64,000 nt of DNA, taken from Macrostomum hystrix. Lineage: Eukaryota; Animalia; Platyhelminthes. The stretch covers positions 434,001 to 498,000 of the forward strand of contig CATNEN010000039.1 of the NCBI GenBank assembly GCA_950097015.1, in the 5' to 3' direction. The position numbers and the translations under genes were made by a program. The notes under the pieces were generated by a model. That model worked only from the letters and a program-made list of their open reading frames with translations. It ran no database searches and was not told the origin of the DNA. Of the stretch, positions 3,249 to 43,720 are shown in pieces; position 1 is the stretch's first letter; each line of letters starts with the position of its first letter.

Positions 3249-7181
<3,933 letters not shown>

Positions 7182-7838
7182 ACTAATAAAAACGTTTTAA
7201 TTAAATGTAATATATTTTTATGTATGTTTGACTTATGCACCGTTGACTTGTCTACAGGTGTTATGTAGTGTCAAATTTTTTTAAGCCTGAAGCGATACAA
7301 TGTAACAATGACAGATAGACAATGACAATGAGATAACCGATAAACTTTTTAGAAAAATTGAAGACAAATACGAGCGCGCAACGCAAAAGGACTTCAAATT
7401 AAAATTGAGGCTTTTACAAATTACAAATGTTAAGTGGTTAAAACTAAATGCAATAGCCAAATTTACAAAAGAAAGTACTCATGACTACTAGCTATAAAAA
7501 GTAAATTTTAAATAGTTAAACACCCTTTCAATAAAAAGAAAAGTTCACATTTTTAAAATAAATATAACTTTTTGATTTAAATAAATTTTGGAATTACTGA
7601 GCACAGCAGCAAAAATGCAGTTGCTAACTTTAACTGCGTATTCTCAGTGGTTTACGTATTATGATTCACCAGATTTACCGAAGCTGGTATCGGCGTGTTC
7701 TTCAATTCCATTTATTGCATATCTCTATTCTCCACAATGTATGGTTTATGACTGTACTACGTTTTGGCTGCTATTTGTATTATGTATGTATTATGTATTA
7801 TGTATTTTGTATTATGTATTTTTATCGCCAGTATCGAA

Positions 7839-8457
7839 TGTCGTAGGGCCCTTTTATCTTCTTGCTTTTCCTCTATTAATCTCTAATTACTTAAGGTTTA
7901 GTTTGTAACTTTTTGGTAGGATTATCTTAACTATGGGTTTATTTATTCATAAATGACTTCTAAGTATCAGCTTTTGAAAGGAAAGACCTCTTGTTGTCTG
8001 TTATATCTATAGGTAGCGATTTACGTGTGTCCGAGCGGCAAGACACTTAATTAATACTGGTCATAACGCACAAACTTTATTGATAAATTTGCTACAATAC
8101 GTACTGATTTGAGTTTTCCAGTCCTAATCAGGTTACCAATGGACTAGAGTTGCCCAGTCAATTACACAATTTGAATAACTCCTGGCTTTTGGTTCTATTA
8201 CAGCTTGGCTTTATCTCAATAGGAAGGTATGAAATGAGTAAGACACTTTTAACGATAATATGTAAAACACTGTTTAACTCGCGAGTGAGCGCGGAACTCA
8301 GGTTGTCTTTCTCCTAAAATTCCCTCTATATTTATAGGATCACATTGGGGTGGCGTACCCCACTAAAACACGGAACCATTTAAACAAAAATTATACGGTA
8401 ACATTATTTCGCGCCAATTTGACTTTAAAATGTTTTGATAATTATTACGCTGCCTCA
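7839..8457 (-). repeat. 3' LTR
   Basis: Direct repeat of 16269-16887 with no differences seen by eye; preceded on the minus strand by the PPT. Confidence 0.97.
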
Positions 8458-8471
8458 ACTGGCTTCCCTAA
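8458..8471 (-). other. Polypurine tract (AGGGAAGCCAGT) abutting the 3' LTR
   Basis: Purine-rich sequence directly before the TG of the 3' LTR on the element strand. Confidence 0.85.
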
Positions 8472-8715
8472 GGTAAATTTTTTGAACGCAGAAGTACAAG
8501 TGATAAAAATTACCAAAACGCAACTATAAAAGAATGTAAGTACAATTTAAGCTAAGGTACAATGACATATAAAAATAGTACACATAAAGAAGATTTTAGC
8601 AAAAGAAAAACACATACTACCTCGTGCAAAGACATTCCATAAAACATGAAACACATAAAATGACAGAATATGATAGGCATACCTAATAGACTAAAACTTG
8701 CCTACACACTAAAAT

Positions 8716-10143
8716 TCAGATAAAAAGGCATTCGCTAGGAACTGGCATAACACGTGGCCAACCCACAATGCGGGCTAGCCAGCGAATTTCAATATTAAGA
8801 ACAATGTCATTAAATTGGTACTGATTTGACTCAATCGAATGTTTAGCGTATTGTACGGCCCGACGCCAAGCTGCAACGGCGTATTCGCCATTGAATTCGT
8901 CCAGTACACGGCGAACCACCGGCTGAACGTCCTCCCGCTGAGGGAATTTACGATCGAGACGAGCGTACGCCACGGACATGAGATACTGTTTAAGCAGCTG
9001 TACGTGGTGCTTGTAATAATCAGCACGGCTCGGGGTCAGATTCCGTAATAGAGCCGGAAAGTCTTCTCCCAGGCGATTGTTCGCCGGCGATTGCTGTTGC
9101 TGCTGCTGTCGACGCTGCTGCCGCCGGTGCCGCTGCTGCTGCCGATGCTGTTGCTGCCGATGCTGTTGCTTGAGCTGCAGGCTCATTAGAGGCTTTGGCT
9201 CTGGCAGCGGCTGACTCGGCTGATGTACTGCAGAGTGTCGATGCAACCGTGGCTGCCTATGCCTGGGCCCTGGAGCCGTCGGCGACTGTGATGGTGATGG
9301 CAGCTCCAATTCTTCTGGTGTATCGCCCTCCGAATCCTGTTGCGACGATGACGGCTGCGACAGCGGTAGCTGCGGCTGCTGCGACGATGATGGCTGCGAC
9401 AGCGGTAACTGCGGCTGCTGCGACGATGATGGCTGAGACAGCGATGGCTGCGGCTGCTGCTGCGATGACGGCTGCGACAGCGGTAGCTGCGGCTGCTGCG
9501 ACGATGACGGCTGCGACAGCGATGGCTGTGGCTGCTGCTGCGGTTGCGGCTGTGAGGGCTGCCGCAGCGGCTTCGGCTGGATCCGGGCAAATCTCTTCTT
9601 GCCCTCTTCGACAGCCGGCTGCGGGACTGGTGCTGGTTTCGGCGCTATAGGCCTACAGTACGTACGATTTGGCCGTTGATCCTGAGCAGAAGCTCCAGGG
9701 ATGGTGATCAGTATTGCGGCTTTAGAGCTCATCGGTTGACGTCTGGCCATTGATTCAGCAATCGGCACCTCCGTCTCCGCCTGGTCCTTCAGGATTCTGC
9801 AGCGTTTGACGGGGTCTACCGGGACGGGCAACCGTGAATTCGGTGCGGACCTCTTGTGAGAACCTCCGGCTTGCGGAACATTACGTCCTGGTGATTTTGA
9901 CACTAGCCTACCACTTACATTGGCTAGCCGAGGAGCAGTTCGCGTCCGGAGTGGGGCTTCATTTTCTTGATCATCCATGATCTCCACAATCTCACTCTCG
10001 GCTGGGACTTCTGCCTGAGTGATAATGACATTTTGCTCTGTTGGATTAATCTCAGCATTGGAGCTGAATGGGGATAGGTCTATTGTTACTGCTTCTAGCA
10101 GTCTATCAAATTCGTCGGGGTCCAATATATCTTGTTCGGCCAT
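8716..10143 (-). CDS. ORF3 of the LTR element: 475-aa non-envelope protein of unknown function (acidic N-terminus, Q/P/S repeats, predicted helical C-terminal domain)
   Basis: Intact ORF from ATG 10143 (MAEQDILD...) between pol and the PPT; no signal peptide or transmembrane segment seen. Confidence 0.8.
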   Translation of the reverse strand: MAEQDILDPDEFDRLLEAVTIDLSPFSSNAEINPTEQNVIITQAEVPAESEIVEIMDDQENEAPLRTRTAPRLANVSGRLVSKSPGRNVPQAGGSHKRSAPNSRLPVPVDPVKRCRILKDQAETEVPIAESMARRQPMSSKAAILITIPGASAQDQRPNRTYCRPIAPKPAPVPQPAVEEGKKRFARIQPKPLRQPSQPQPQQQPQPSLSQPSSSQQPQLPLSQPSSQQQPQPSLSQPSSSQQPQLPLSQPSSSQQPQLPLSQPSSSQQDSEGDTPEELELPSPSQSPTAPGPRHRQPRLHRHSAVHQPSQPLPEPKPLMSLQLKQQHRQQQHRQQQRHRRQQRRQQQQQQSPANNRLGEDFPALLRNLTPSRADYYKHHVQLLKQYLMSVAYARLDRKFPQREDVQPVVRRVLDEFNGEYAVAAWRRAVQYAKHSIESNQYQFNDIVLNIEIRWLARIVGWPRVMPVPSECLFI

Positions 10144-10228
10144 GACGGCAATTGAAATGTAAAACACACAATTAGTGGGGAGGTTCAAGACGAACGGACA
10201 GTTGACATTTGCCCGCCTGCTGTTCTCG

Positions 10229-10373
10229 TTTATATAGGCGACAAAACTAGGGGTTGTCGACTCCCAATTGGTTGACTGAAGGTTTCTTCAAATTTTACTG
10301 GCTCCTTGGAAGACCCTTAATTCTTGAATTCTATTGGCTCGCTTACTATCCCTTGGTTCTCGGTTTCTATTGG
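10229..10373 (-). promoter_or_regulatory. Putative internal Pol II promoter for ORF3: TATATAAA plus three CCAAT boxes
   Basis: Minus-strand TATATAAA at 10236-10229; CCAAT at 10271-10267, 10337-10333 and 10373-10369 (the last two as AGCCAATAG); variant CCAGT at 10301-10297. Confidence 0.6.
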
Positions 10374-10453
10374 CTTGTGAGACTTTCCCATATAGTCATC
10401 CCTTGACATCGTGCGAGCTTGCTTTCACCCCTGTTGCGTAATCATCCCCTCTC

Positions 10454-13400
10454 TTAAATCTGTATAGTTCCCAAAAGATTGAATACAGTGATAAGCCTCT
10501 GTAAATAGCCTTGATACCTAGCAGGGGGTCTGACTTGCCTTCTAGTATTGTATGGACGCTCAGATGGCCTCTGTTCATTGTTCTCCTCTTCGCTGTTTTC
10601 GTCTGAGGTGGATGCCTCCTCACTATTGATTGTGGTCTCATTCTCTTCTTCGCTTGCGCCTTCTATGGGCTCTGATTCACTCATTCCAATTTCTACTTCT
10701 GCTCCAATATCGAGTTGCTCACCTTGAATTATACTCTGCTCATGATTATTGCAATGCCAATTTATTCTTTCCTCTTCGGATGATGACTCTGCATCGAATG
10801 GTTGTTCCTTCTTTCGGGACTGGCTTCCCTTAATTCTTGCTTCTGTCCTAGTCTTTTTCTTGGTGGTCTGCTGGCTTCCCTTATTTTCTATTTCTGCTTT
10901 CTTGTTATTGACAACAGGCTGGCTTCCCTTAACTAATTCCTCTAGTTTTTTTACTGAATTGGGCACGGGTGTCAAATTATCGCGGTGTACTAGCATCAAA
11001 TTTCCTACTAGGATTCCTTCTTCCTCTTTCTGTACCTTGAATACTACTTCAGAAATACATTCTATCACACGATAAGCAGATCTCTGCTTGCGATGGAATT
11101 TATGTGATTCTTCCGTATCTAGCTGTGGATTATTGATTAGAGCTAAACTTCCTAGCAAGATCTCTTTCGGCGGCTTGTTGATTCTGGCCGCTGCTTGTCT
11201 TTGTTCCACGACGGACTCCAATTTCTTCTTTACTATTTTCTGGGCAGTTTCTAATCTTTCTACGTGTTCAGCGACATAAGATGGATAGCTAGAAAAGGAC
11301 TTAGCTTCTTTGATCTGGGTATCTAATGGCAATACGGCTTCCCTACCGAATAACAGGTAATGAGGGGTGAAGCCTGTTGTTTGATTTACGCTTGTGCGAA
11401 CTGCAACCAATGCAGCTGGAATCATTAAATCCCAATTGTTGTGATCCTTTTCAATTAAACAAGTCACAATGGATTTTATTTGCTTGTTGAACCTCTCTAC
11501 TAAGCCGTTACTTTGGGCATGATATGGGGTGGTGAACGTATGTTTCACATTGTACAAGCTGCAAAACGCCTTAAATTGTCTACTTGCAAACGTTTTCCCA
11601 TTATCAGTGTGAATCCAGTGACATTGACCAAATTCTGTGAATATTCTCTCCTGTAGAATCTTAATGACAGTGTCTGCCTTTTGATTTCTCACGGGGAACG
11701 CAAATGGGTACTTTGTGGTACTATCGATGACCGTAAGTACATAGCGGTGCCCTCTCCGACTTTCCTTTGATATTGGGCCGATCAAATCGCAGTGGAGACG
11801 ATAGAAGGGTTCGCATATAGGGAACGATTGAATTGGGGCCTGGATTCGGTGTCCTCGCTTGCTTTCATGACAATGGATACATTCTGCAATGTACTTTTCG
11901 ATAACTGTGACCAGACCGGGTCTCCAGAATCTCTGCTTGACTTTCTGCACAGTCTTATCTCGTCCTAGATGTCCAGACAGTGGGCTCTCATGCAAATCAG
12001 TAAATATTACTTGATCGAGGGCCTTGGGTAAAACAATCTTCCAGTCCTCTTCTTCTTGAATTATCAGCATGCCATTCTCGATCGACATTTTCTCATAGGC
12101 TTTGCTCATCTGCCTGATCTCACTACTAGAATGATCTGTTATCTGGGGATCACTACACTTTTTCTTCCAATCAATGAGGGTACTAATCGTAGGATCTTCC
12201 TGCTGAGCTTTAATTAATTGTTCGTGCTTCAGGGGCATGGGTAGATAATCTGTTAATAACTTTTCACACTTGCCATTGATTTCTTGCAGTGTTTCATTTC
12301 GCTGTGGGGGATTGAATTCTTTGGCGGCCGGATTCAATAGCATTACGCTGACATCCTGAGGTCCTTCCTGAATTCTTTCCTTCTCTAATCCTGAAACTGT
12401 AGATGGGATCCTAATATTGGGATCAATTGTCATTGTCTCTCCTTCGAATGGCAAAACAGTCTGTGGCTTGGTCAAGCTAAGGGAGCTATCATTGGCCATT
12501 TCCTGTTCGGGTTTCTCATTCATACTGCTGTTCTTCAATGACTGCTCTATGACTGGGATACCTTCGGGGACTTCGGCTGGTCTTCGGGATAAGCTGTCGG
12601 CGTTTTGATTTTTCGCACCGCTTCTGTGTTCAATATCGAACTTGAATTCGTTTAGGCGCTCAATCCACCTGCCTAGTATACCTTGTGCTTCAGTCTGCCT
12701 AAGTAACCAGATAATAGCTTGATGATCGGTTCTGGCTAGAAACTTCTTGCCTAATAGATAAAATCTAAAATGTTTCATTGCATCGACTAGTGCTAATAAT
12801 TCCTTCCTAGTGATGGGGTAACGCTTTTCCGATTCTTTCATTGCGCGACTGAAGTAAGCTAACGGCCGTTCTACACCATCTGACTGAATTTGACTTAAGA
12901 CTGCGCCGATTCTATCATCACTAGCGTCTGTATCCAACACCATTTTCACACTTTCATCATCGATAAATTCGGGATAGGCTAGCACTTCTGTGGACATCAT
13001 ACGGGTTTTAAGTGATTCAAAAGCCTGATCATGGATCTCACTCCATTTCTCCTTAAAGTTCTGAACTCCCTTTCGAGTCAGTTGAAATAATGGGTGGGCT
13101 GCTTCCGCATAATTTTTAATAAAGCGACTATAATAATTACACAATCCTAAAAAACTTCGTAACTCTTTGGCATCTTTTGGCTTTGGCCATGTCTTAATTG
13201 CTTCGATTTTCTCTTCATCGGTGCGAATGCCTTCTATGCCTATAATATGGCCTAGGTATTTTAATTCCTTGTGAAATAAATTGCATTTCTTCGGTCTAAG
13301 TTTCAAACCTGCAGTGATTAACCGTTGAAATACTTCCTTAAGATGGGCCAAATGGTCATTAAAGTTCTTTGAATAAGTAACAATGTCATCAATATACGAC

Positions 13401-14128
13401 ATTGCGAATTTATGTTGGATTCCTAAAAGTACAAGGTTCATTAGTCTTTGGAACGTTCCGGGAGCATTTGATAAGCCTTGGGCCATGACCTCATATTGAA
13501 ATTGGCCTCTTGTCAGGGTGGAAAAAGCTGTCATGTGCTTATGCTCTTCTTTTATTGGCACTTGCCAATAACCGGAATTTAGATCTAGACTACTAAAATA
13601 CTGACTTCCTGTAAGATAAGAGAATGTCTGATGAATATTAGGTAATGGGTAGGGTACATAATCGACTTTAGAATTCAATACTCGGAAATCACTAACGATC
13701 CTGATAGAACCATCTTTCTTCGGAACAATCACTAATGGAGTACTATAAGTAGAATAACATGGTCTGATTAGATTCTTAGCTAACATATCATCTAATTGTA
13801 AGTCGACTTGTTTTTGTAAATGAGGTGGAATTCGTCTGGTCGGAATTCTTACAGGTGTTTCGTCATTCAAAGATATCTCATGGGTAATGAGGTGGGTCAA
13901 TCCCATGTCTAGATCATTCTGTGAAAAGGCATTTCGATGTTCTTTAATCAATTCGATGACCGACTGTTTCTGCTCACTGGAGAGTTCTGACCCGATTCTG
14001 ATCTCCTCAATCCAGGCATCTTCCACAGTTTGGGTTTGGTTGACTTTTCCGGCTGACTCAGGATCGGCTTGACTGACTGATTTAAAATAGGCTAAATCAC
14101 TGGCTTTCACCGGTTTTGCCAATCCTAC
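10454..14128 (-). CDS. pol: Pol: reverse transcriptase, RNase H, integrase, with acidic C-terminal tail
   Basis: LDLNSGYWQ, YIDD, LDTDAS, TDHQA, NADSLSR, HHCC zinc finger (HESPLSGH...CIHC), D,D35E core (CDLIGP, TDNG, NGLVERFN). Confidence 0.97.
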   Translation of the reverse strand, partial: VGLAKPVKASDLAYFKSVSQADPESAGKVNQTQTVEDAWIEEIRIGSELSSEQKQSVIELIKEHRNAFSQNDLDMGLTHLITHEISLNDETPVRIPTRRIPPHLQKQVDLQLDDMLAKNLIRPCYSTYSTPLVIVPKKDGSIRIVSDFRVLNSKVDYVPYPLPNIHQTFSYLTGSQYFSSLDLNSGYWQVPIKEEHKHMTAFSTLTRGQFQYEVMAQGLSNAPGTFQRLMNLVLLGIQHKFAMSYIDDIVTYSKNFNDHLAHLKEVFQRLITAGLKLRPKKCNLFHKELKYLGHIIGIEGIRTDEEKIEAIKTWPKPKDAKELRSFLGLCNYYSRFIKNYAEAAHPLFQLTRKGVQNFKEKWSEIHDQAFESLKTRMMSTEVLAYPEFIDDESVKMVLDTDASDDRIGAVLSQIQSDGVERPLAYFSRAMKESEKRYPITRKELLALVDAMKHFRFYLLGKKFLARTDHQAIIWLLRQTEAQGILGRWIERLNEFKFDIEHRSGAKNQNADSLSRRPAEVPEGIPVIEQSLKNSSMNEKPEQEMANDSSLSLTKPQTVLPFEGETMTIDPNIRIPSTVSGLEKERIQEGPQDVSVMLLNPAAKEFNPPQRNETLQEINGKCEKLLTDYLPMPLKHEQLIKAQQEDPTISTLIDWKKKCSDPQITDHSSSEIRQMSKAYEKMSIENGMLIIQEEEDWKIVLPKALDQVIFTDLHESPLSGHLGRDKTVQKVKQRFWRPGLVTVIEKYIAECIHCHESKRGHRIQAPIQSFPICEPFYRLHCDLIGPISKESRRGHRYVLTVIDSTTKYPFAFPVRNQKADTVIKILQERIFTEFGQCHWIHTDNGKTFASRQFKAFCSLYNVKHTFTTPYHAQSNGLVERFNKQIKSIVTCLIEKDHNNWDLMIPAALVAVRTSVNQTTGFTPHYLLFGREAVLPLDTQIKEAKSFSSYPSYVAEHVERLETAQKIVKKKLESVVEQRQAAARINKPPKEILLGSLALINNPQLDTEESHKFHRKQRSAYRVIECISEVVFKVQKEEEGILVGNLMLVHRDNLTPVPNSVKKLEELVKGSQPVVNNKKAEIENKGSQQTTKKKTRTEARIKGSQSRKKEQPFDAESSSEEERINWHCNNHEQSIIQGEQLDIGAEVEIGMSESEPIEGASEEENETTINSEEASTSDENSEEENNEQRPSERPYNTRRQVRPPARYQGYLQRLITVFNLLGTIQI

Positions 14129-15286
14129 TTAAGTGGACTTGGTCAGTTTCACGTCTACTGGATGATGATTCACAATTTCCACTACGGCCGTGCCATCTCT
14201 CATAGTGACTAAAGTTGGCATCATTTCCAACATCATTTCTTGAGTCTTCACTCCTTCTCCAATGGTTTCTACTGTCATAGGAGTTCCGTGGTTGCACTCA
14301 GCATTCTTAGCTAGTCTAACTGGGACTCGCAATGCACTATTAGCTGGGATCACGGTTTTCTCCTGGGTGTACACTCGACAGACTTTTACTGGCAAATGGG
14401 TGAATTGCATTGGGATTCGTGATCCTTCTTTCAGAATGAGCATTCCTTGGGCTAAGCTTATGCTATCACAGCATTCAAGGAAAAACTCCATGCCAAGGAT
14501 ATTGTCACACTCATGACTGCATAGCAAAAAGTCAATTTCGGCTTCTATATCACCAAATTTCACAGTGAGACAACTTTCTCCTTCTAGCTGAACTCGGGTT
14601 CCGTCAAAGGTGGAAATTCTCTTATTCGTACTTTTAATTTGGTCGGACTTTACTAATTTGGTCCAGACTGATTTACTTAGGAAACTATTTCTAGCTCCAG
14701 TATCCAAGATAAACTTAACATCTTGCTTTTTAATGGTTCCTATAACGACTGCTTCATAACCTTCTGGCTTTACTAACTCTACTTTAGCATTAGAAGCAAA
14801 AATTTTAGATTGTCTCTCACGTGTCCTTTGACTCTTGATTAGCTTCTTCCTGGCGGACTTCTGTGCTGGCGTGTCGTCTGCTGATTCTCCGGAATCTGAG
14901 TCTGTCTCATCGCTGGGTGCTGACACTGTGGATGCTGACATAACTGTTGGTACACTGGATGCTGACATAACTGATGCTGACGCGAATGGTGCTGACACAA
15001 CTGGTGCTGACGCGAATGGTGCTGATACGACTGGTGCTGACGCGAATGGTGCTGATACGACTGGTGCTGACGCGAATGGTGCTGACACAACTGGTGCTGA
15101 CGCAAATGGTGCTGGTAAATAACGAGCGGGTGCTGAAGCGTTCCGTGCATTACGCCATTTAGATTGGGAATAATAAATTTGAGTTTTGACAACTGGGTGT
15201 TGTCCATTCAAGGAGGCCTGGTATTCGAACAAGGTTCTTCTGGAGGGGCGTGGCCTCTGCTTCCGTCCCTCGAATCTCAGTTTCCC
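14129..15286 (-). CDS. Protease region of pol, entered by -1 frameshift from gag; ends at an in-frame TAA (14131-14129) in the same frame as RT
   Basis: Aspartic protease ILDTGA and ILGMEF motifs; frame is open from the slippery site. Confidence 0.9.
   Translation of the reverse strand, partial: GKLRFEGRKQRPRPSRRTLFEYQASLNGQHPVVKTQIYYSQSKWRNARNASAPARYLPAPFASAPVVSAPFASAPVVSAPFASAPVVSAPFASAPVVSAPFASASVMSASSVPTVMSASTVSAPSDETDSDSGESADDTPAQKSARKKLIKSQRTRERQSKIFASNAKVELVKPEGYEAVVIGTIKKQDVKFILDTGARNSFLSKSVWTKLVKSDQIKSTNKRISTFDGTRVQLEGESCLTVKFGDIEAEIDFLLCSHECDNILGMEFFLECCDSISLAQGMLILKEGSRIPMQFTHLPVKVCRVYTQEKTVIPANSALRVPVRLAKNAECNHGTPMTVETIGEGVKTQEMMLEMMPTLVTMRDGTAVVEIVNHHPVDVKLTKST
14973..15115. repeat. 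30-bp coding tandem repeat (APFASAPVVS x~5) between gag and protease
   Basis: Visible in DNA and translation. Confidence 0.9.
15243..15286 (-). other. Programmed -1 ribosomal frameshift signal: G GGA AAC heptamer plus 3' hairpin
   Basis: Gag ends CAG GGA AAC TGA; the -1 frame reads KLRFEGRK...TLFEYQ into the protease ORF; GAGGG...CCCTC stem starts 8 nt downstream. Confidence 0.8.
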
Positions 15287-16209
15287 TGCTGATTGAACTG
15301 TGGTCTGTATGGGAATCGATTTTGACCGTGTTGGGGCCTGGCAGAGGAATACCTTCCTTGGTAGTTCTGCTGCGGTCTCTGACCATAGGGGGCCTGTGGT
15401 CTATACCGATTTGGTTGGTAGGGCTGCTGAAAGCGCGCTTGCTGCTGCATAAGCGGCTGGGGCGGCTGATACTGCCTTTGATTTTCTGCTCTCCTTTTCT
15501 CCTCAATCAAATTCTGAATTAGTTGCTTCTGCTTACTAATCTCCTGTTTCTGCTGCTGGATCACTTCCTCTAACTTGTCCTGCTGACTCTCGCTTTCTTC
15601 TCCCTTCACCATTCTGACTCCACTCTTATGGGATAGGTGCCATGCGGCTTCAATCCTACGCAACATCCGTCTTGCTTCTTGCAGGGTCGCGGGCTGTGCA
15701 AATATCAACTTCTCTCTTGTCTCAGATGGGATCCTAGTTCCTTTTAGAAACTGTTCCACAACTTCCTCCTCTCTTTGCTCCGCGTTCATGTTAGGGAATG
15801 CCCTTGTTGCTAGCTCAATGAGGGCGTCGGCAAACATGTCTGTTGGCTCATTACGTCCTTGCATTCTTCCACGAAACTCCTCTCTAAATTCGGATGCGCT
15901 TCCTATTCTTCCAAATCGCTCTATCAGTCTCTCCCTAAACTCCTCATAGGTTAGATCGTCGGGTAGATTTAGTCGTTGGACTGCAGCGAAAGCTGTTGCT
16001 AGATCAAGGTTGGCTAAGAGCTCATTCTTTCTGTGCTCGTCCTGATTTAAACCTTCAGTATCGCACCTTTGGTCAAATGCAGTTAGCCAGATTCTAATGT
16101 CTTGACTTGGAGTGTACTTTTGGATCTTAATATGCCTCATTGGCCCTAGTTCAAGTCTATTTCTTAGCTCTTCGGCTAACAATCCGATAGCGTCATTTAT
16201 TCCTGCCAT
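15277..16209 (-). CDS. gag: Gag (310 aa)
   Basis: First ORF after the PBS; retrotransposon gag-like motifs (W...F, L.ERF, R.QG..E....F...L..LA..AFP, EQFL.G). Confidence 0.9.
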   Translation of the reverse strand: MAGINDAIGLLAEELRNRLELGPMRHIKIQKYTPSQDIRIWLTAFDQRCDTEGLNQDEHRKNELLANLDLATAFAAVQRLNLPDDLTYEEFRERLIERFGRIGSASEFREEFRGRMQGRNEPTDMFADALIELATRAFPNMNAEQREEEVVEQFLKGTRIPSETREKLIFAQPATLQEARRMLRRIEAAWHLSHKSGVRMVKGEESESQQDKLEEVIQQQKQEISKQKQLIQNLIEEKRRAENQRQYQPPQPLMQQQARFQQPYQPNRYRPQAPYGQRPQQNYQGRYSSARPQHGQNRFPYRPQFNQQGN

Positions 16210-16251: not shown

Positions 16252-16265
16252 CACCGCTGCTACCA
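16252..16265 (-). other. Primer binding site TGGTAGCAGCGGTG, probably tRNA-Leu
   Basis: Starts with TGG 3 nt inside the 5' LTR; near-complementary to the CACCGCTGCCACCA 3' end of eukaryotic tRNA-Leu (one mismatch, recalled from memory). Confidence 0.75.
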
Positions 16266-16268
16266 AGT

Positions 16269-16887
16269 TGTCGTAGGGCCCTTTTATCTTCTTGCTTTTC
16301 CTCTATTAATCTCTAATTACTTAAGGTTTAGTTTGTAACTTTTTGGTAGGATTATCTTAACTATGGGTTTATTTATTCATAAATGACTTCTAAGTATCAG
16401 CTTTTGAAAGGAAAGACCTCTTGTTGTCTGTTATATCTATAGGTAGCGATTTACGTGTGTCCGAGCGGCAAGACACTTAATTAATACTGGTCATAACGCA
16501 CAAACTTTATTGATAAATTTGCTACAATACGTACTGATTTGAGTTTTCCAGTCCTAATCAGGTTACCAATGGACTAGAGTTGCCCAGTCAATTACACAAT
16601 TTGAATAACTCCTGGCTTTTGGTTCTATTACAGCTTGGCTTTATCTCAATAGGAAGGTATGAAATGAGTAAGACACTTTTAACGATAATATGTAAAACAC
16701 TGTTTAACTCGCGAGTGAGCGCGGAACTCAGGTTGTCTTTCTCCTAAAATTCCCTCTATATTTATAGGATCACATTGGGGTGGCGTACCCCACTAAAACA
16801 CGGAACCATTTAAACAAAAATTATACGGTAACATTATTTCGCGCCAATTTGACTTTAAAATGTTTTGATAATTATTACGCTGCCTCA
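16269..16887 (-). repeat. 5' LTR (TATAAATA at 16766-16759; AATAAA at ~16511-16506)
   Basis: Direct repeat of 7839-8457. Confidence 0.97.
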
Positions 16888-17039
16888 CGAATGAGTGAAG
16901 CAATACGTCTATCTCTGTCCATTGATAACTAGGCCATGGCTGCAATAAATTCCGGTTAAATTAATGTACTAAATGAGGGGGCCTACATATTACATGAAGT
17001 TAAAAAACTATTCATAATTTAAAAAACAATTCGGTTTTG

Positions 17040-18252
17040 AGCTTAGAAACTTTGTCCGACTCGGAATATTCCGACAGTTAATATGTTAGGCTTATACATT
17101 ACCTGTCGGCCACCCGACGGCAATAGGCTAGGCTGGAAAAAGATCAAAATATCTCCAGGTTTGCCTTGCAAAAGCTGCGCTTTCCCACTTTCTTCCAGGT
17201 ATCATTGCCTGGGAAAAGTCAAAGACAAAGATTTATTCATATTAGTATTAGCACCAATATTGTTTCTACTATGCTTATGAAACCTAACTCAAGAGCTTAG
17301 TGACTTTTAACTCAAAAGCTGGGTTGTCCATTGCTAGGTATTCTTTATCCCAGTCAAACTAGACCCTCTTCATTTTCAACAAATTTATATTTTATAAAAG
17401 GTAGGCCTAGTTGTTATTTGTCCAGTTAACCAGACAAATAGCCATTTGATTATATCCGGTTAATATGTTAACCACCCAAGGACTTAATTTCTCCCCTTTC
17501 AACGAGCAGGAGCAACGATCCTCCCAAAGACCACTCTTGCCTTACTGAGAGCCATCTGGAGTCTTGACTTCACAAAGACCATACTATACCCTTGAACAAA
17601 GTTAGTCCCTGAAACAACCAAATTTCTGGAAAATGTTTTAATTTTTTAATTAGCTGATAAGCAAAAATAATTTGAGACACAAACTTCAAATCTGAATGAC
17701 TGTCCTTTTGCAGCTTGTTAATTATTTTATCTTACAAATAATAGAGGTTCTCATGGTAGTGCTACAACCCCTTATAACTTAGTTATAAGTTATAACTCAG
17801 TTAACCGGACAAATAATCAAATGGCTATTTGCCCAGTTAACCGGACAAATAACAACTGCCTTTATAAAAAGCTATCCCTATGCATTGCATCAGAGCTGCA
17901 CTTTTCCTAGGCAATGATACCAAGAAAGCGGGAAAGTGCAGCTTTTTCCAGGCAAGCCTGGAGATATTTTGATATTTTTCCCAGTCTAGTCTATTGCCGT
18001 CGGGTGTGTCGGCATATTCTGACAGTTATTCTAACTCAAAATTACATGCATGTATGTAATAAGCTCTCAGACAGATATTCCGACTCGTAATTAACTCGAA
18101 GTTTCAAGTTGGAATAACTGTCTGAGTGTGTATTTAAACAAACTGACTTTCAAGTCGGAATAACTGTTGGAATATGCCGACAAGTAATGTATAACACATT
18201 AACTGTCGGAATAAGTATTGGAATATTCTGAGTCGGACAAAGTTTCTAAGCT
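17040..18252. mobile_element. Non-autonomous foldback/MITE-like DNA transposon, Mutator-like
   Basis: Ends AGCTTAGAAACTTTGTCCGACTC...GAGTCGGACAAAGTTTCTAAGCT; 9-bp TSD TCGGTTTTG (17031-17039, 18253-18261); internal arms also inverted (~17110-17220 vs ~17900-18006; ~17390-17460 vs ~17800-17870). Confidence 0.9.
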
Positions 18253-19752
18253 TCGGTTTTGGCATCCTCAAATTTCAGAGTTGAAAAATGTAAATTATAT
18301 ACCTGAATTAAGCACTTCAAGCTCCTTCCGGGAATATAAATCTTGTCCCTCAATCTTGAAAAACAAAAGCACCATTCACAGTTGAAATTTAGTTGTTTTT
18401 TGCCCCAAGAAACTTTCAATGAGTACAATATTTTCTGCCAACTTTAAGAGGCCTACCAATTTAATCAATTGAATTTGGAGTGCACTAGTCAATATGCAGT
18501 TGTATATTGAACAAATCAGACCTATCACATACAGATACACATCATATGTAGACTCACATACCCTCTTTCTACAAATAAACAAAGGCAGTTAAAATGTGCA
18601 AAACCTACTTTCCACCCTATTAACTACTGCTAACCTCCACTTAAGAGAAAATATACTAGACTGATAACACAAAATGTTGGCGCAACTCAAAATGTTAAGC
18701 CAATTTGTCTTAGCAGGAAGTAGTTGGCCTTGCTGATACAAAAAAATGTTTTTTTTTCGATGATCATTTCAAGTATCATTGGCCTTATTAAAAATCGTCC
18801 ATGCTCTATAACCTTCCTTCCAAAATTTCTTTCCTCACAATTGGATTTTTTGAAACAAAGTTCATGGACATGCAATAGGCAACTGTAAAATTCCTCTCAA
18901 AAGAATGCTATGCAAGGCTAACAACTGGCCTGTGCAACCATATAAGAAGAAAACAAAATGGGGTGCTATGCCATGCTATGTCAAGCCATACTACTCAATT
19001 ACATGTGGCACCAACTATAATTAAAAAATGTGCTTGACATATGTTTAAAATGTTGTGTTTTCCTATCTATATATATAAAAGTGAAAACTCTGTCTGTCTG
19101 TCTGTCTGTGTGTGTGTGTGCAACCTTTTGTCTTTATAGACGCCGAAACCGCTCAACTAAATCGCACCAAACTTTGCACATACCTAAAACCACCTACGCT
19201 GAGTGCAATAGGCTACTCAAATTCCCGAAAAATCATTTCCTTCCTGCTCAAAAGTGCAAAAAACTGCTCAAAAATCGTCAAAAAATCACTCAATTCGACA
19301 TATCGTCGCCCCACTTTGTCAGATTTTCTCCAAATTTGATCCACTTACACTTTACATGTTTTCCAATAATGCTGTCAATTTTGAACATCTCTACTCAATC
19401 CAGAGCAAAGCTGCATCATCTCAAAGTGAGTCACTTTTTGTTTTCCGAAGACAGCCACCCCAACTCCCCTCCGCCACTCTGCGGGCCAAATTTTATTACA
19501 GCCACCCCCTCCCTTCCCCGGGCGCCGAAGCCCCAGACTGTACATTGTATTTCAAGCCGTGAATGTACACAGCCCAAACCCCTAGACTGTCTCTCCAGTC
19601 GATATTTCTCTACAGCCAGCCTGGGATAGAAGAAAGAGAGAGGCTGGCGTACAGTGCTTTGCTAAAATAGAGGCTTAGCCTTTCCCACTGAAGATAAGAG
19701 AAAGATTTTTCAACACAGGTCCCCTGTCATTCGGACTACTTCTAACTTTCAG

Positions 19753-21430
19753 ATGCCACCTAAGAAAAGTTTTTTAAGTCGCTTGACTAAAGCAGCTCGA
19801 CGAGCAACAGCAAGGCCAAACGATGCAGTAGAAGACGGCGCAACAACAGCAGTACCTAGACCAAGCACCTCAGCACAGCCACAAGCAGCTTCAAGTGAAA
19901 ATGAAGCTGAGCCAGTCCAGCCCTATAACCTTCGACCTCGGACAAGAGCACAGACATCAGGCACCAGTGGAAGCAGTGCTGGAGCTGCAATAAGTTCTAC
20001 AGCCAGTCACGGCAGAGACGTAGATAGGCGACGAGAGCTTAACAGAGAGCGAACTGCCGAGGCCCGTCGCAATGAGACTGCAGTCCAGACACAGCAGCGC
20101 CAAGAACAGAACAGAGACCGGACTGCCGAGGCCCGTCGCAATGAGACTGCAGTCCAGACACAGCAGCGCCAAGAACAGAACAGAGACCGGACTGCCGAGG
20201 CCCGTCGCAATGAGACTGCAGTCCAGACACAGCAGCGCCAAGAACAGAACAGAGACCGGACTGCCGAGGCCCATCGCAATGAGACTGCAGTCCAGACACA
20301 GCAGCGCCAAGAACAGAACAGAGACCGGACTGCCGAGGCCCGTCGCAATGAAACAGCCAACCAGGCTGAAGTGCGTCGGCAGGATGATCGAGAGCGGCAT
20401 AGGGAACGCGCTGAGACCTTCCAATTTGTTGGACCACCCCCGGCCCCAACAAACCCCAACGTTGACGAACCTGATCAGCCAGCTGGCCCACGTCCTTGGG
20501 CACTGAATGCGGCTCTGAGTTATGATCCCACTGTTGTCTATGGTGTCCATCCTAAACTTGCGATGGCGAGAATGTTGGTCAAATGCGCACGCTGCAATGC
20601 ATTAAGATGGGCCAACGAAACTCCAGGCATGTGCTGTTCCAACGGAAAGGTCATACTTGAACCTTTGAACGAGAACCTGCCACCATGCCTTCGGCATCTG
20701 TTGCTGGGTGAGACAGAAGAATCTGAGCACTTTCTGTCTAATATCCGGTGCTACAACAGCTGCTTTCAAATGACTTCTTTTGGAGCTAAAAGTATTGTCC
20801 GTGAGCCAGGGTTCATGCCTGCATTCAAAGTCCAAGGTCAGGTGTACCATGACAGGATCATTGCTACCACTGCCTGGAGAGGAGCCAAAGTTCCAGCAGA
20901 TCTACTTCATGGGAGATCATCAAGAGCAGGTTGAGCGCCGATGTAGAATCGCTCCAGGAGTGCGTGCCAACATTGTATTTGAGTTACAGGAAGTCCTGCA
21001 CGAGAAAAATAATTATGTTCGTCAATTTAAAACTGCCATGGAGAGGTTGCCACGGGACACAGAGGAGCACAGAGTAGTCATTCGTGCTGATAAACGGCCT
21101 GCAGGCCAGCATGAGAGGAGATATAACGCACCAGTTGTTAACGATGTCGCAATTCAAATTGTTGGGCAGGAATTTGAGAAGCGAGACATTGTTCTGCAGC
21201 TGCGAAGCAATCAGTTGCAAAGGATTTCTGAGCTGCACAAAGCCTATGATACATTGCAGTATCCGCTTATTTTCTGGGACGGAGAGGATGGGTACCACAT
21301 CAACATCAGGCAAATTGACATTCGCACTGGAAACCCATCGGCGACAAAGAATGTGTCAGCAATGGACTTCTATGCCTTTAGGCTAATGGTCCGAGAAGGA
21401 AGCTTCCTGGATCTGCCACTGACTGTATAG
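19753..21430 (+). pseudogene. Truncated, frameshifted Helitron RepHel N-terminus
   Basis: CxxC...CC..GKV, NIR.YNS.FQMTSFG, FKVQGQVYH, GSLLP, RRYNAP, YD.LQYPL.F..GEDGY, VSAMDFYAFRL; frameshift near 20850; no HUH or Pif1 helicase motifs. Confidence 0.88.
20041..20351. repeat. 69-bp coding tandem repeat (RRNETAVQTQQRQEQNRDRTAEA) in the Helitron ORF
   Basis: About 4.5 near-identical copies. Confidence 0.95.
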
Positions 21431-23583: not shown

Positions 23584-24008
23584 GGCATTTGTGCTTGCCT
23601 TGGCATTTTTATAAAATATATTTGCTTCATGTACTCATACTCCAAACCATACGCATCATCAACATGGAGACATGAAAACCATGGTTGTAACAAATAATTG
23701 ACACATTATTAAGCAAAATAAAGAAAAAGAAATAGCTATTCTATTTTTACAAATTAAGCATCTGTCTACTGCATATTTTTAATAGTCACTCTTTAGCAGA
23801 TTTTTTCCAACTGCAGCCACGTATCTCCTTTCCCATATTGTCTTTGCTTGCAGTCGCTTGCGAGTTATCAATCTGCAGTGTCGGGTTCCAAAGCAGCGCA
23901 ATCCACATTGACTGGAGTCTTCAAACTGGGCATACAATATTGGCCCTTTTCACAGACGCATCATTGAGGACTGCCGCCTGACCTCCGGGGCTGACCTCCG
24001 GGGCTGCG

Positions 24009-27000
24009 ATGACTGACACTGCGGCAACTGCATTGACTGCTGGATTGGAAGAACTTCAGGCCGATGGAACTGATGAATCGGATCTGCTCAAAGTACAGCC
24101 CGCCGGTCCTCAAGATCGCTTAGTGGAAACCAAGCTTTCTGCTGCAGAAGACGGCGTACCAACGATCCAGGCCCCAATAGTTCAGGAAGCTAAAGTCCAG
24201 CCTACTGAAGCAGACATTCGTCCCTCTGAAGCTGAGGAAGATAACATCCAGGCTACTGACGCTGAAGTTCATCCAACTGCAGCTGAGGAAGATAACATCC
24301 AGGCTACTGACGCTGAAGTTCATCCAACTGCAGCTGAGGAAGATAACATCCAGGCTACTGACGCTGAAGTTCATCCAACTGAAGCTGAGGAAGATAACAT
24401 CCAGGCTACTGACGCTGAAGTTCATACAACTGCAGCTGAGGAAGATAACATCCAGGCTACTGACGCTGAAGTTCATCCAACTGAAGCTGAGGAAGATAAC
24501 ATCCAGGCTACTGACGCTGAAGTTCATACAACTGCAGCTGAGGAAGATAACATCCAGGCTACTGACGCTGAAGTTCATCCAACTGAAGCTGAGGAAGATA
24601 ACATCCAGGCTACTGACGCTGAAGTTCATCCAACTGCAGCTGAGGAAGATAGCTCAGAAGCTCAGAAAGCTGAGATCAAGGCTACTGACGCTGACATTCA
24701 TGCCACTGAAGCTGAGATACAGGCTACTGACTCTGGCATTCATCCCATTGAAGCTCAGGAAGCTGAGATCCAGGCTACTGAAGCAGAGGCTGCTCTTGAA
24801 AATGACGTCACTAAGCCAGACACCACAATTACAGAGTCAGAAGTTAAAACTAGAGCACAGGCCGAAGACCAAGTTATGAGTGATTCCGCTTTGGACTCAA
24901 ATAATCATGCAGAGACGGATATAGGTCTCACTGATGCTGCATCAGCCGAGATCCAAGAGGCGACTGTGTCAGAAGTAGCGGTTGCATCCATTATGCTGTC
25001 ACAAGGCGCGGCAGACTTAGATGTTAACGACACCGAGGAAGTCATGGCTGATTCAGAGATGTCCGAGACATTTGGCGAGGCGTCAGAAGCGGCGCTAACT
25101 GAGGTTGCCAATGAGACGGACGATGCCATTATGGCCGAGGCCGAGGCCGCGCTGAACGAAGTTGAGGCACAGGCAGCTGCAGCAGAGGGCACCGTAGGAA
25201 CCGAAGTGGGTGCTGAACCTATGGATGCAGACGCTGAGTCAGCAGCAGCTGAAAAGTTTGAGACTGGCGATTCGGACAGTGTTGAGCAGCCCGCCTCTGC
25301 TGGTGCCGGAACCGCTAGAGCTTCGATTCGAACGCCTTCAATCGCGGCTGCTGTAGCCGCAGCCGCCAAGGCAGCTGCTGCGGCGGCAGCTGGAGGCGGG
25401 CAGGTGTCGACGCAGCGGCCGTCCAAGCCTCGCAAGCCCATCGGCACTGGGAGGCGATCGCGCCAAGCCAGGCGGGACCCTCTGGAGCCTGTAAATCCGC
25501 GTTCCGCCTACACCATCTTTGTGAAGGAGAAGATGGAGGAGCTGGGCGTGCACATCAAGGACACGCCGGATCTAAAGCTGAAGGGCAAGGAGCAGATTAA
25601 AGTGGTCGCGCAGCAATGGCGGGACCTATCTGCGGAGGAAAAAGAGCGCTATCAGCAGATGTTCACAAATGCTTTCGCGCATTACGAACAGGAACTAGCC
25701 GCCTACAAGCAGACGGAGTCGCACCGGCTGTTCCAGGTGAGCTGTATGCAGGTATACATTTTTAGCACTTTAAAAAATCACAGTGGTATATAAATAAATA
25801 TCCTCCTGCTTTTAATTTCCATCGCAGGAGAAGCTGAAGGCAATGGATGCAGAGAAGGCGAAGAACAACCCGTCCACTTCGTCTGCGCCAAACCCGGCCA
25901 ATGCGGCCGCAGCTGCCGCCGCCGCCGCAGCCAAGAAAAAAGCAAGCAGTGGTCTCGGAGGCGTGACGGCCAAGATCGCTGCTGTTGGCGGCGGCGTCAA
26001 TAAGGTGACGTCATCGGCTGCCGTTACCGCTGCACCGGTCGTGGCCGCAAACACTGGAGCCGGTATGGTTCGCGTGAAGGAGGAGATGCCCATCCAGCAG
26101 CAGCAGACAGCCCAAACAGTCTTACCCCAACAGTTGCTGCAGGGCATTGTGCAGCTGCCACAGGGCCTATCGACCATGTCTGCAGCACCTGTGTCGGTGT
26201 CCGGGGCTCCTGGCCAGCCACTACTGACGGCCACCCCAATCCCGCTAAACTCGCTGAACCAATTCGTGTCCGTGTCCCAGCTGCAGCATCTGTTGCCACC
26301 AGGCACCGTCACCCTGCTGGCTGTCACGCAGCAACAGCCGCAGCAACTCCAACAGTCGCAGCTGCAGCAGCAACTAGCCGCTCAGCTACCTGCGCCGTCA
26401 CAGATGCATCCTCAATCGCAGCTCCAGCAGCAACAGCAGGTGATCGTTTCTTCGCAGGCTTTGCTACCCAGCTTCCCCGAACTCAGCCAGCCGGCCTTGC
26501 TGGCCTACGGCGGCGCCCAGCCTGCGCAGCTGCAGCAGCTCCAGCCCCAGCAACAGCAGCAGGCGTCAGTGTCCTACGCATTCAGTGGCGCCAGCGTCCC
26601 CCTGCTGGACTCTTTTGTGCAGAGCAGCTCAGCTGGTAGCGGCTTGCTGGAGATGGACAGCAAGCTGGGGCTGGTAGTGAGCCAGCAGGCGCTGCAACAG
26701 CCAGACATGAAGCCCCTGGTGAGCGTGGCCAACCTGCAGATCGTGAACGCAGTTGCCGCGGCTAACAAACCCATGCAGTACATGACTGAGATTGTGGGCA
26801 TGATCCAGCGCATCGCACAGGCTATGGACCGCAAAGCATCGGGCCAGCCGACTCAGGGTCTGGAAGAGGCCGTGATGCAGCTGCGGAACAAGATGTTTGA
26901 GGCACAGAACTTCTACCAGACCACGGGCCGTGACTTTGTCAGCGAGCTGCAGGCGCAGATCGACAAGATCCTACCATCGCTTAATGATGTGCGCAACGAG

Positions 27001-27063
27001 GTTCTGTACAAGCTACAGGACGTCATCCGGTCCATGATCTTCTCACCGCAGCAGCAGATCTGA
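24009..27063 (+). CDS. HMG-box protein (HMG20-like box) with acidic repeat N-terminus and Q-rich region; exons 24009-25736 and 25828-27063
   Basis: RDPLEPVNPRSAYTIFVKE...VAQQWRDLSAEEKERY...YEQELAAYKQTE HMG box; phase-0 GT-AG intron joins the two ORFs. Confidence 0.85.
24232..24650. repeat. 51-bp coding tandem repeat (AEEDNIQATDAEVHPT[A/E]) x~8
   Basis: Visible in DNA and protein. Confidence 0.95.
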
Positions 27064-40293: not shown

Positions 40294-42039
40294 TCTCAGG
40301 ATTGCTGACTAGGATGCAGAGATCTGGTGATAGTTGATGATGCCTTGCCCTATTCTGACAGCTGTCAATGCACAATAGATGTAGACAGCAGTGTCAGGTT
40401 GACAGTGTTCAGCTCACTGAAGCAAAAGGATTGAATAAAATAATACAATTCCACAGTATATTAGATTTGTATTTGACAATAGACACATCTCAGAAGTGAA
40501 TCAGCCAACACATTTGTTGGCATATAGGACAAAAAAATAAATGAAAAGACATTATATCAAATTTTTATCAATATACTATTCTTCCTATATCTGATTGCAA
40601 TACAACCAATAGATATTGTATTATATATGAAATATAAAAATTGCAATATCTCAAAATATACAACTCAAAAGCACAAATTTTAAATGTATTTCTAAAAGTA
40701 CTCATGGGGAATAATTCTAATTTAATAGACTTTAAAAATATCAAAGTGGCTAAAAGCTTGGGCCTATCTTAGCTATAGATTTGTATTTAGCCAGGGCCTA
40801 CTATGACAAAATTGAAAAAATTATATGACAAATTAAAAACATTTGGGTAGCTAGGCCTTAATAATTTAAATTCATAACTGTTGCACTTGATACCAACATT
40901 TCAATAGGTTTTTTACCACAATTAAACTTTAAAGCCTTTAAGCTTTTCACCCAAAAATTTGGTGCCATTTGGTACCTTGGGTCAAAATCAGAGTAGGGGG
41001 CCTACCTATTGGCACCTGTCAAGTGTTTATTAAATTAGTTTCTTAATTCCCACACTCATCAATAATCAAGCACAGCATACTCTAGCCTACTCTTCATATT
41101 AATACATTTTTAATGTCATCAGACTTACAACATCATTTTTCATTATTTTTTGCACTGAGACTACACTTACTATTTACATCTAAAAATGCATTGTGATATT
41201 TTTGCACTAGGCCTATCATCAGGTCCAAATACAGAGAGCCAAAAAACTATGTGCCATGGCACAAAGTATGCTCATTGCACAAAAAACCCAGACCAGACAG
41301 ACTAAATTAAAACATTTGTAAGTTTATGTTTTAATTTTTTTATCTCATGGCCATGAGTTACTTTATTTAGCAATTTTAGCTAGGCCCCTAGTCTAGTCCA
41401 ATTTAACAAGATACTACCATAAGGTTCAATAGAAACCAGACTGATACAGGTGAGGCAGAGGCAGACCCGTTTTAATACCGTATAAATTTTAAGTCAAATT
41501 CCCGCCAAAACATTTATTTTACTCGAAGGGTTTGTTTAAAGTGTTAACGTTCTCCCCTCTCCCTTGTGGGGTCGGGGAATATAAATATAACCGCTCGCGG
41601 AGGCAAAAAGGCGGACCTTGACATTTTGGCTAAAAGGCCCCTGAATAATAGCCGTGTAATAAATCAGATTGAAATTGAGTACTGTGTTGATTATTTCTCA
41701 GAGTTGAAGGTTGATTGGACAAAGTCATACGCTAAGAGTCAAATTGAATAAAGGAAGGAATGTTAAATAACCAGATTGAAGCAGGGGATAAAATCCAAAT
41801 TAAGAAAGGAAATTCCAGAGTGAGTGCTATACGTGCGTGGAGACTGGGCAATTTCTATCCATTGGGAGCCTTTAAGGACTGAACAGATTGCCAAATGGTT
41901 AGAGGATAATAATTGGAGTGTCTTGCCGCTCGGACACAATCAATATACGCTACCTAGAGATTTGTTTTCAGGCAATTTGCACCAGTGCATTTAAATCAAA
42001 TTGATTTGGCATAGGTGAATACATACATACATTCGCCTA

Positions 42040-43712
42040 AGAACGGCGTCGATGAGGCTACGAGCCTACGGTGGGAAGCTGATCGCCCTAGCTGGGATCG
42101 CAACAGTGCCCGTCAAGCACCACAGCCGTGAGCTCCAACACGACTTCTACGTCACGAGGTCTGGCGAGAACCTCATCGGCCGCGACCTGATGGAGAAGCT
42201 AGGCTTCCGCGTGCAACTGCAGCCGCCAGCTGAGATCGGTGCCGAGATCGCCAGCGTAGACATCGAACGAGAGTTCCCAACGGTCTTCAGCGGCTCGATC
42301 GGTCTCTGCAAAGGCGCAGTGCACAAACCGAGGATTAACGCAGCGGTGCCACCAGTGCAGCAGCCGCTCCGTCGACTTCCGCTCGCTAAGCAGCAACAAG
42401 TCGGCGAGGAGCTGGACCGTCTGGAGGCCATGGGAATCATCGAACGGGTGAATTCCAGCCCATGGATCTCCAACTTGGTTGTCGCTAACAAGAAGGACGG
42501 AAATATTCGAGTCTGCATTGACGTGCGAGAGCCGAACAAGTCGCTCGTCATCGACCGGCACCCGATGCCGCAGCTGGACGAGATCTCGGCCAAGATCAAA
42601 GCGGCCGGAGGCAGCGTGTTCTCCAAGATCGACCTTAAGGCAGGATACATGCAGATGAAGCTGCACGAGTCATCACGTGACCTGACAGCATTCATTACTC
42701 ACCAGGGTCTGTATCGCTACTGCAGGGTGCCGTTCGGCCTTGCTTCTGCACCGGCGGCATTCCAGAGGATGCTGGACGACCTGGTGTCTGATCTGCAGGG
42801 TGTTGAGCACATCCTGGACGACTTCATTGTCTTCGGAGCAACTGAAGCCGAGCACGACTCGAGGCTGCGAGCACTGCTGAAGCGATTGGAGGACGCCGGT
42901 CTCACTGCCAACAAGGACAAGTGCCAGCTGCGGAGGACTGAGATTGAGTTCTTTGGCTTCATCTTCTCAGCCAACGGCATGCGACCGTCTGAGAGTCAGA
43001 CCAAGGCCTTCAGCGAGCTGCGCCCGCCGACCAACAGGAAGGAGCTGCAGGCGTTCCTGGGATCCGCCAACTATCTGATGCGGTTCGTGCCCAACTTCGC
43101 GGAGGTAACGGCGCCACTGCGGCCTCTGCTGAAAAGCGACGCGGTGTTCGAATGGTCGACGGAGTGCGAGAAGGCATTCGAAACGTTGAAAGCGGCAATC
43201 TGCAGTCCGCCGGTCCTAGCCCACTTCGACCCAGGGGCCGAGACGATCGTCACTAGCGACGCCAGTGCAGAGTCCCTCGGTGCGCAGCTGTCCCAGGTCC
43301 AAGATGGCATCGAGAGGCCGATCGCCTTCGCCATGAACATCATCCAGCTACCAGACACTGCGATGCCTCCGGTACGGGTTGTTACCCCGCAGCAGCTAGC
43401 GATAGCCACAGCCGAGGATGCGGTTCTGCGACAGGTGATTCAGCACGTCACAAGCGGCAACTGGAGCTCTTCATCGGATAGCGAGCTGCAGCCGTACTTC
43501 AAGGTCCGCGAGCACCTCAGCGTCTGGCAGGACGGCGCCTGCCTGGCTTTCCAAGAACGAGCCGTCATTCCCCTGCAGCTGCGGCGCGAGCTTCTGGAGG
43601 CGGCCCATTCTGGACATCCGGGGGTGGTGCGCACCAAGCAGCAGCTCCGCGAGTTCGCCTGGTGGCCAAAGATGGACGCCGACGTCGAGACGTTCGTCCG
43701 AGACTGCGGATT
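42040..43712 (+). mobile_element. Ty3/Gypsy (Mag-like) pol fragment: end of protease, RT, partial RNase H, start of integrase zinc finger
   Basis: NLIGRDL, FSKIDLKAGYMQ, RVPFGLASAPAAFQ, ILDD, TSDAS, ERPIAFA, AHSGHPG..WWP...C; no LTRs seen. Confidence 0.92.
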
Positions 43713-43720
43713 GGTGAGAC

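Follow-up and report, generated by a model that had tools for sequence, protein, structure and literature searches.

The window, the whole stretch of 64,000 nucleotides (64 kb) of Macrostomum hystrix DNA that was analysed, carries a Ty3/Gypsy LTR retrotransposon on its minus strand. The element has paired TG..CA LTRs, a target-site duplication and, by Pfam, pol domains in the Ty3/Gypsy order of protease, RT, RNase H and integrase (PR-RT-RH-IN). Outside its third gene, it consists of the following parts:

16888-16891, no strand: first copy of a 4-bp target-site duplication, CGAA on the plus strand
16269-16887, minus strand: 5′ LTR of 619 nt, TG..CA, containing a single CCAAT at 16778 and, at 16766, a TATA match
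16252-16265, minus strand: PBS-like tract starting with TGG, 3 nt inside from the 5′ LTR
15277-16209, minus strand: gag-like ORF1 of 310 aa, gag by position
15280-15286, minus strand: slippery heptamer GGGAAAC where gag ends; here the -1 frame opens into pol
10454-15286, minus strand: pol frame, PR-RT-RH-IN, interrupted by one in-frame stop (14129-14131) and containing a 15-nt tandem repeat (14930-15147)
8458-8469, minus strand: short, purine-rich PPT-like tract preceding the 3′ LTR
7839-8457, minus strand: 3′ LTR, an exact match to the 5′ LTR, with AATAAA at 8081, 7947 and 7943
7835-7838, no strand: second copy of the 4-bp target-site duplication

The two LTRs align with identity at 619 of 619 positions, TG..CA ends included, and are bordered by the 4-bp duplication, so that their identical appearance, remarked on in an earlier note on this DNA, holds at every position. 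The same note described the element as full length. This is correct insofar as the element is complete between its LTRs, yet it is not intact as read, because the pol frame contains a single in-frame stop (14129-14131) between the protease and RT. The copy is therefore young but not autonomous as read. The stop, in spite of the identical LTRs, would be a recent mutation, an error in the assembly or else a trait of the family. The primer is presumably a leucine-like tRNA, which is our candidate for the PBS-like tract. ORF1 has no Gag match in Pfam. Expression of pol from gag would occur through -1 frameshifting at the GGGAAAC heptamer, downstream of which no stable RNA structure is found (z=0.18). 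The 15-nt tandem repeat (14930-15147, minus strand) lies in the N-terminal part of pol, before the protease, and encodes a spacer rich in Ser, Ala, Pro and Val. At the other end of pol, the C-terminal tail of the integrase (10454-10900, minus strand) is long, acidic and of low complexity, with no chromodomain match. No heat-shock element is found in the element by regex, and Rfam returns no matches across the 64-kb window.

The element resides upstream of a class III alcohol dehydrogenase gene split by introns (3598-5902, minus strand), approximately 1.9 kb from the first exon seen; this gene is adjoined by a 35-nt tandem array (3402-4109). Just beyond the 5′ LTR there are nested inverted repeats (17040-18252), which suggest a foldback or MITE-like DNA element. 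These are followed by frameshifted plus-strand ORFs with a 20-aa repeat (19666-21430), which we take to resemble the N-terminus of a Helitron Rep/helicase, and by a plus-strand host gene with a 19-aa acidic repeat (23982-27063), after which comes a segment that we presume to be HMG-box-like. A second Gypsy-like pol fragment (42019-45198, plus strand) continues into a tandem array of 39-nt units (about 43700-45000).

The third gene, ORF3, comes after the pol stop (10454) and before the 3′ LTR (7839-8457), in the same sense as gag and pol:

8716-10143, minus strand: ORF3, 475 aa, ATG in the context GCCGTCATGG, without a TM segment or family match
10069-10143, minus strand: acidic/hydrophobic N-terminal segment (residues 1-25, net charge -7); the homolog P0004 has a start of similar character
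9568-9654, minus strand: RPIAPKP and RIQPKP motifs, in which the sister-contig changes, among those listed, are all synonymous
9298-9570, minus strand: Q/P/S linker, 39-nt tandem repeat
8719-9114, minus strand: basic Q/R patch and conserved C-terminal domain (residues 344-475), predicted to be all-helical at low confidence, with a gapless identity of 26-27% to P0002/P0004 up to the last residue

The intact 475-codon sense ORF that the earlier note placed in the env position is borne out: its frame contains no stops, and the other five frames of the same span contain 14-24 each. The product does not resemble an envelope protein. Its highest 19-residue Kyte–Doolittle mean is 0.83 and residues 1-25 carry a net charge of -7; on this basis there is no TM- or signal-like segment, in line with the earlier description, and neither a signal peptide nor a C-terminal TM anchor is found by hydropathy and N-terminal charge. 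The protein has three cysteines in 475 residues, and a Cys-rich F- or gB-type fusogen ectodomain is not found in it by this count or by Pfam and PDB sequence searches. The missing TM and signal segments, the few cysteines and the lack of a fusogen match speak against an errantivirus-like Env. The other motifs quoted in the earlier note are present, but its two RxIxPKP motifs are in fact one strict copy (RPIAPKP, residues 164-170) and a second (RIQPKP, residues 187-192) that is one residue short. About a third of ORF3 is of low complexity, and residues 1-25 are a candidate activation helix.

Coding constraint on ORF3 was assessed on contigs from DNA or unlabelled sequencing runs, the four main runs (X1-X4) all belonging to one study. 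Six such runs contain part of the stretch, none of them recorded as RNA; four were compared with the element and four, including one additional run, with the ORF3 region. Four near-identical contigs of run X2 tile the entire ORF3 with 8 differences and no gaps, and the near-identical pieces from runs X1, X3 and X4 are listed without a gap inside it. Among the within-family differences listed in ORF3, 6/10 are synonymous (24% expected, p=0.017) and none is a stop, in a count without positions 9122 and 9125, where unrelated contigs with CAG repeats dominate, and without three sites that fall outside ORF3. A diverged sister contig of 1,476 nt, again from run X2, shows 104 differences and 29 gaps over 9545-10206. 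Of these differences 26 are listed, spanning 9566-9697, of which 14 are synonymous (25.5% expected, p=0.002) and 15 fall at third positions; site 9566 is counted in both sets. With sites classed one at a time, these 26 listed sites in 44 codons yield a dN/dS of about 0.22 for this part of ORF3, which is not near the value of 1 that the earlier note associated with neutral evolution. The third-position bias is seen both before and after a listed gap of 1 nt at 9600, suggesting paired gaps or a recent break. The synonymous bias, along with a gapless distant homolog, supports ORF3 as a real, protein-constrained gene. Runs X1 and X2 also contain a diverged contig that joins the integrase region to the PPT (positions 8469-11403 of the window) with sequence of unassigned nature between them; its source may be either a related family without this ORF3 or one with a far more diverged copy.

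The homolog in question is the single match, P0002, returned by phmmer among 1.84 billion representatives (E 6.7e-6, 27% identity, ORF3 residues 344-475); no host-gene homolog is found in this set. In BLASTP the two proteins align over 134 residues at 26% identity, gapless to the last residue. P0004, a cluster mate of P0002, is an unnamed protein of 251 aa, present in Logan only, which extends to an acidic start. It has the following layout in common with ORF3: an acidic/hydrophobic start, EAPLR, RxIxxKP, a basic patch and the conserved domain, with an Arg-rich patch immediately before the domain in both. The N-terminal similarity is not significant in single local alignments (p=0.42 and 0.24); the motifs chained in order give p=0.008.

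Further relatives of ORF3 were not found in a variety of searches. In Pfam, neither the complete protein nor its C-terminal 114 aa matches a family at E<=1, and P0004 matches none at E<=5. The one NCBIfam match (E 0.036), which scores 12.9 bits where the cut-off is 550, is not credible, and the best E in a PDB sequence search is 0.31. Word-index searches confirm none of 83 candidates for residues 350-475 and, with the homolog alignment, 0/2,197 at the longer range and 1/102 at the near range, the latter being P0002 itself. Locus scans find no relatives in metagenome contigs or viral contigs. The sole locus of a degenerate motif scan (L001) was rejected because its match is flanked by stops and reaches an E of 0.22 at best. 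Unnamed ESM Atlas clusters (0.92-0.93, about 150 shared features, one 12% Peptidase_C48) were treated as noise, and P0002 has no matches there. Two AlphaFold runs on the conserved domain predict five helices at low confidence (pLDDT 48.7 and 40.8). With the first model, a BFVD fold search gives no matches at E<=0.001 and a wide PDB fold search reaches a top Z of 5.7 (rmsd 4.4, 89 aligned) to generic helical bundles; with a model of such low confidence these searches are uninformative, and novelty of the fold does not follow from them. The earlier note proposed an undescribed family, distinct from known env proteins and described domains. With one unnamed cluster as homolog, and no match to ORF3 or its C-terminal region in Pfam, NCBIfam, PDB or, for the low-confidence model, BFVD, the family does appear to be undescribed. 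The literature covered, with most subscription journals and Repbase outside its scope, yielded no description of this family, of the RPIAPK motif or of a Gypsy-encoded transactivator.

The spacer from the pol stop to the ORF3 ATG is 310 nt in length and holds one further feature:

10229-10373, minus strand: predicted internal promoter, with three CCAAT boxes (10373, 10337, 10271), one CCAGT variant (10301) and TATATAAA (10236)

Relative to the ATG, the CCAAT boxes are found at -230, -194 and -128 and the CCAGT at -158, in steps of 36, 36 and 30; a description of such spacing was not found in the literature covered. CCAAT boxes bind NF-Y. The TATA box, TATATAAA, starts 93 nt before the ATG, which itself is a strong Kozak start (GCCGTCATGG). 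Across the 9,049 nt of the element's sense strand there are three TATAWAWR matches, one in each LTR and the one in the spacer, which is the only non-LTR match. When the spacer is shuffled 5,000 times with its dinucleotides preserved, three CCAAT occur in 0.84% of cases, a TATA in 2.9% and both in none, for patterns that were picked after viewing the sequence. The two strands of the window contain 35 triple-CCAAT clusters, 33 of them in one tandem repeat, and the spacer is the only one of the 35 with a TATA after it. By a crude regex, no strong splice acceptor lies ahead of the ATG. Given the three CCAAT boxes, the only non-LTR TATA and the strong Kozak start, ORF3 probably has its own promoter in the spacer; this is a prediction from patterns chosen post hoc. 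The predicted promoter tilts the likely role of ORF3 towards that of a transactivator.

The earlier note regarded a non-env ORF3 as unusual, a premise that is overstated, since the available text of the sources already describes CERV of Caenorhabditis elegans Cer1 (PMC10309623), the ORF3s of bdelloid rotifers (PMC5408684) and the plant aORFs (PMC7264820). The bdelloid ORF3s encode GDSL, DEDDy, coiled-coil and TM proteins. As far as that text extends, they resemble the present ORF3 in being family-specific and non-env in animal LTR elements, and differ from it in being recognisable enzymes or TM proteins (PMC5408684), whereas ORF3 has no Pfam match and no TM; neither an SGNH (GDSL) nor a DEDDy catalytic domain is found in it by Pfam. 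Maize Grande gene23 has an antisense promoter of its own and codes for a nuclear protein (PMC7264820, PMC9289625). Similar to ORF3, gene23 and the plant aORFs lie after pol and ahead of the 3′ LTR with their own promoter, which for ORF3 is predicted. The gene23 product is nuclear and, in the text available, without assigned function, while ORF3 is nuclear only as a prediction; the plant ORFs also differ in lineage and in being antisense, with no homology found (PMC7264820). In Oikopleura, the env of Tor4b has an internal promoter, Penv, in the space after pol. According to the portion available, Tor3b and Tor4b thus resemble ORF3, by prediction, in a third ORF that is expressed without splicing from a promoter in pol or the space after, but their product is a transmembrane Env glycoprotein (PMC4402516). 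Planarian Burro elements also carry accessory ORFs (PMC6431247). The available text of a survey of metazoan env-bearing Gypsy elements (PMC13524379) and of the Troyka paper (PMC12440569) contains no ORF3-like protein, and that of a Macrostomum LTR survey (PMC12801592) mentions no extra ORF. A non-env ORF3 is therefore a known kind of feature; the protein family and the reading as promoter plus activator appear to be new.

An LTR-independent promoter, an acidic start, a disordered linker with motifs, a basic patch and a conserved domain would best fit a nuclear regulator. From its motifs, ORF3 may be localised in the nucleus and serve as a transactivator or in anti-silencing. The leading proposal, to which we assign a probability of roughly one in three, is that ORF3 is a nuclear transcription activator that boosts the element's own promoters in the manner of Tas. 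In foamy viruses, an internal promoter drives Tas, a poorly conserved activator of the acidic class, which then turns on the LTR; the Tas response elements are themselves poorly alike (PMC3798896). As described in the text available, these viruses are similar to the element in having a TATA-containing internal promoter before a 3′ accessory gene (predicted here) and a product with an acidic activation segment (a candidate here) and a second domain, and both Tas and ORF3 are poorly conserved in sequence. They differ in belonging to the Retroviridae and not the Metaviridae, and in having the promoter inside env; a bel2/Bet is not present here. No sequence or fold link to Tas/Bel1 is found (Pfam at E<=1 for ORF3 and E<=5 for P0004, presence of a Tas model in Pfam being unconfirmed).

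Several points count against an activator, among them the post hoc choice of the promoter patterns and an N-terminal similarity to P0004 that is not significant in any single local alignment. There is no recognisable DNA-binding fold in ORF3, as judged on unreliable models. No element common to the spacer and the opening 160 nt of the LTR exceeds chance (38/40 and 35/40 shuffles scored just as high). Finally, CERV, the sole characterised animal Gypsy precedent, serves RNA export and is dispensable for transcription. The wider proposal, that a Gypsy element independently evolved the foamy virus circuit, with a CCAAT/TATA internal promoter producing a self-encoded activator of a new family, whose new helical domain would bind DNA or a factor and which would turn on the LTR and work in trans on defective copies, is doubtful.

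The CERV precedent leads to a different role, in which ORF3 would be a CERV- or Rev-like nuclear RNA-binding adaptor for the export or stability of unspliced genomic RNA, binding RNA through the Arg/Gln patch that precedes the helical domain. CERV, a nuclear protein encoded in the env slot, is required for the export of Cer1 genomic RNA (PMC10309623); no other functional precedent comes from an animal Gypsy. In the available description, CERV and ORF3 are both lineage-restricted non-env ORFs in this slot, CERV being nuclear and ORF3 predicted to be so. The Arg-rich patch directly before the domain in both homologs would suit such an adaptor, as would a 120-nt segment (9103-8984) that folds at z=-3.1, although this is the best of 21 segments with 30 shuffles each. 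However, no leucine-rich NES is matched by regex in ORF3 or P0004, and the acidic N-terminal helix is left unexplained. CERV is also made from a spliced mRNA sharing gag exons and contains a Cys loop as well as H, M and GTPase-like G domains (PMC10309623, available text), whereas ORF3, with its own Kozak ATG, predicted internal promoter and one helical domain by prediction, is set apart by description. On whether it has an M ring or GTPase-like G domain, the all-helical predictions are of the low confidence given above and the fold searches uninformative. An export role is rather unlikely.

It is unlikely, too, that ORF3 acts as an anti-silencing factor or host-factor decoy, whose motifs and helical domain would bind or titrate repressors (chromatin, SUMO, piRNA) and de-repress the family indirectly. 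A long disordered region with motifs kept despite rapid divergence is consistent with this, and an LTR-independent promoter, as predicted, would permit expression while the LTR is silenced. Regex matches to SIM-like (VEIMD) and CtBP-like (TIDLS) motifs are present in ORF3; yet such short patterns often match by chance, and P0004 lacks the CtBP-like match and has its SIM-like match at a different position. No known suppressor is matched in Pfam or in the BFVD fold search with the low-confidence model.

Another job, as a capsid or pre-integration-complex adaptor (in nuclear entry or integration targeting) or as a manipulator of the host cell cycle, is quite unlikely: the basic patches would suit it and plant aORF products have been proposed to act so (PMC7264820, available text), but there is no direct sign of it, and Pfam finds no chromodomain or other reader domain. 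A passenger, whether a piece of a host gene picked up by the element or a frame that is open only on account of a young insertion rich in GC and repeats, is very improbable and already largely refuted, for while the insertion is young, about a third of ORF3 is of low complexity and the dN/dS rests on few sites, the synonymous bias appears in two comparisons, the other frames are full of stops, the gapless 26% homolog ends at the same residue, a host-gene homolog is not found among the representatives searched, and promoter motifs and a Kozak context precede the ORF.

The proposed activator would function as follows. The CCAAT boxes would give the internal promoter a basal activity, resulting in a short mRNA that ends in the 3′ LTR. 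The basic patches would carry the protein into the nucleus, where the conserved helical domain would bind the element's DNA or else a host factor already bound to DNA. Coactivators would then be recruited by the acidic helix at the N-terminus and by the short linear motifs, which would thereby raise LTR activity at the level of transcription, as in the internal promoter and Tas system of foamy viruses. The protein could work in trans on defective copies, including this one.

LTR retrotransposons are usually thought to depend on host factors for their transcription. If the activator reading is true, a Gypsy element that encodes an activator of its own, with a separate promoter for it, would be a “complex” element like the foamy viruses. 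It would also provide a compact, testable case of an element timing its expression or evading silencing. Short of an activator, ORF3 extends the list of non-env ORF3s by an undescribed constrained domain and by a candidate promoter whose position is mapped.
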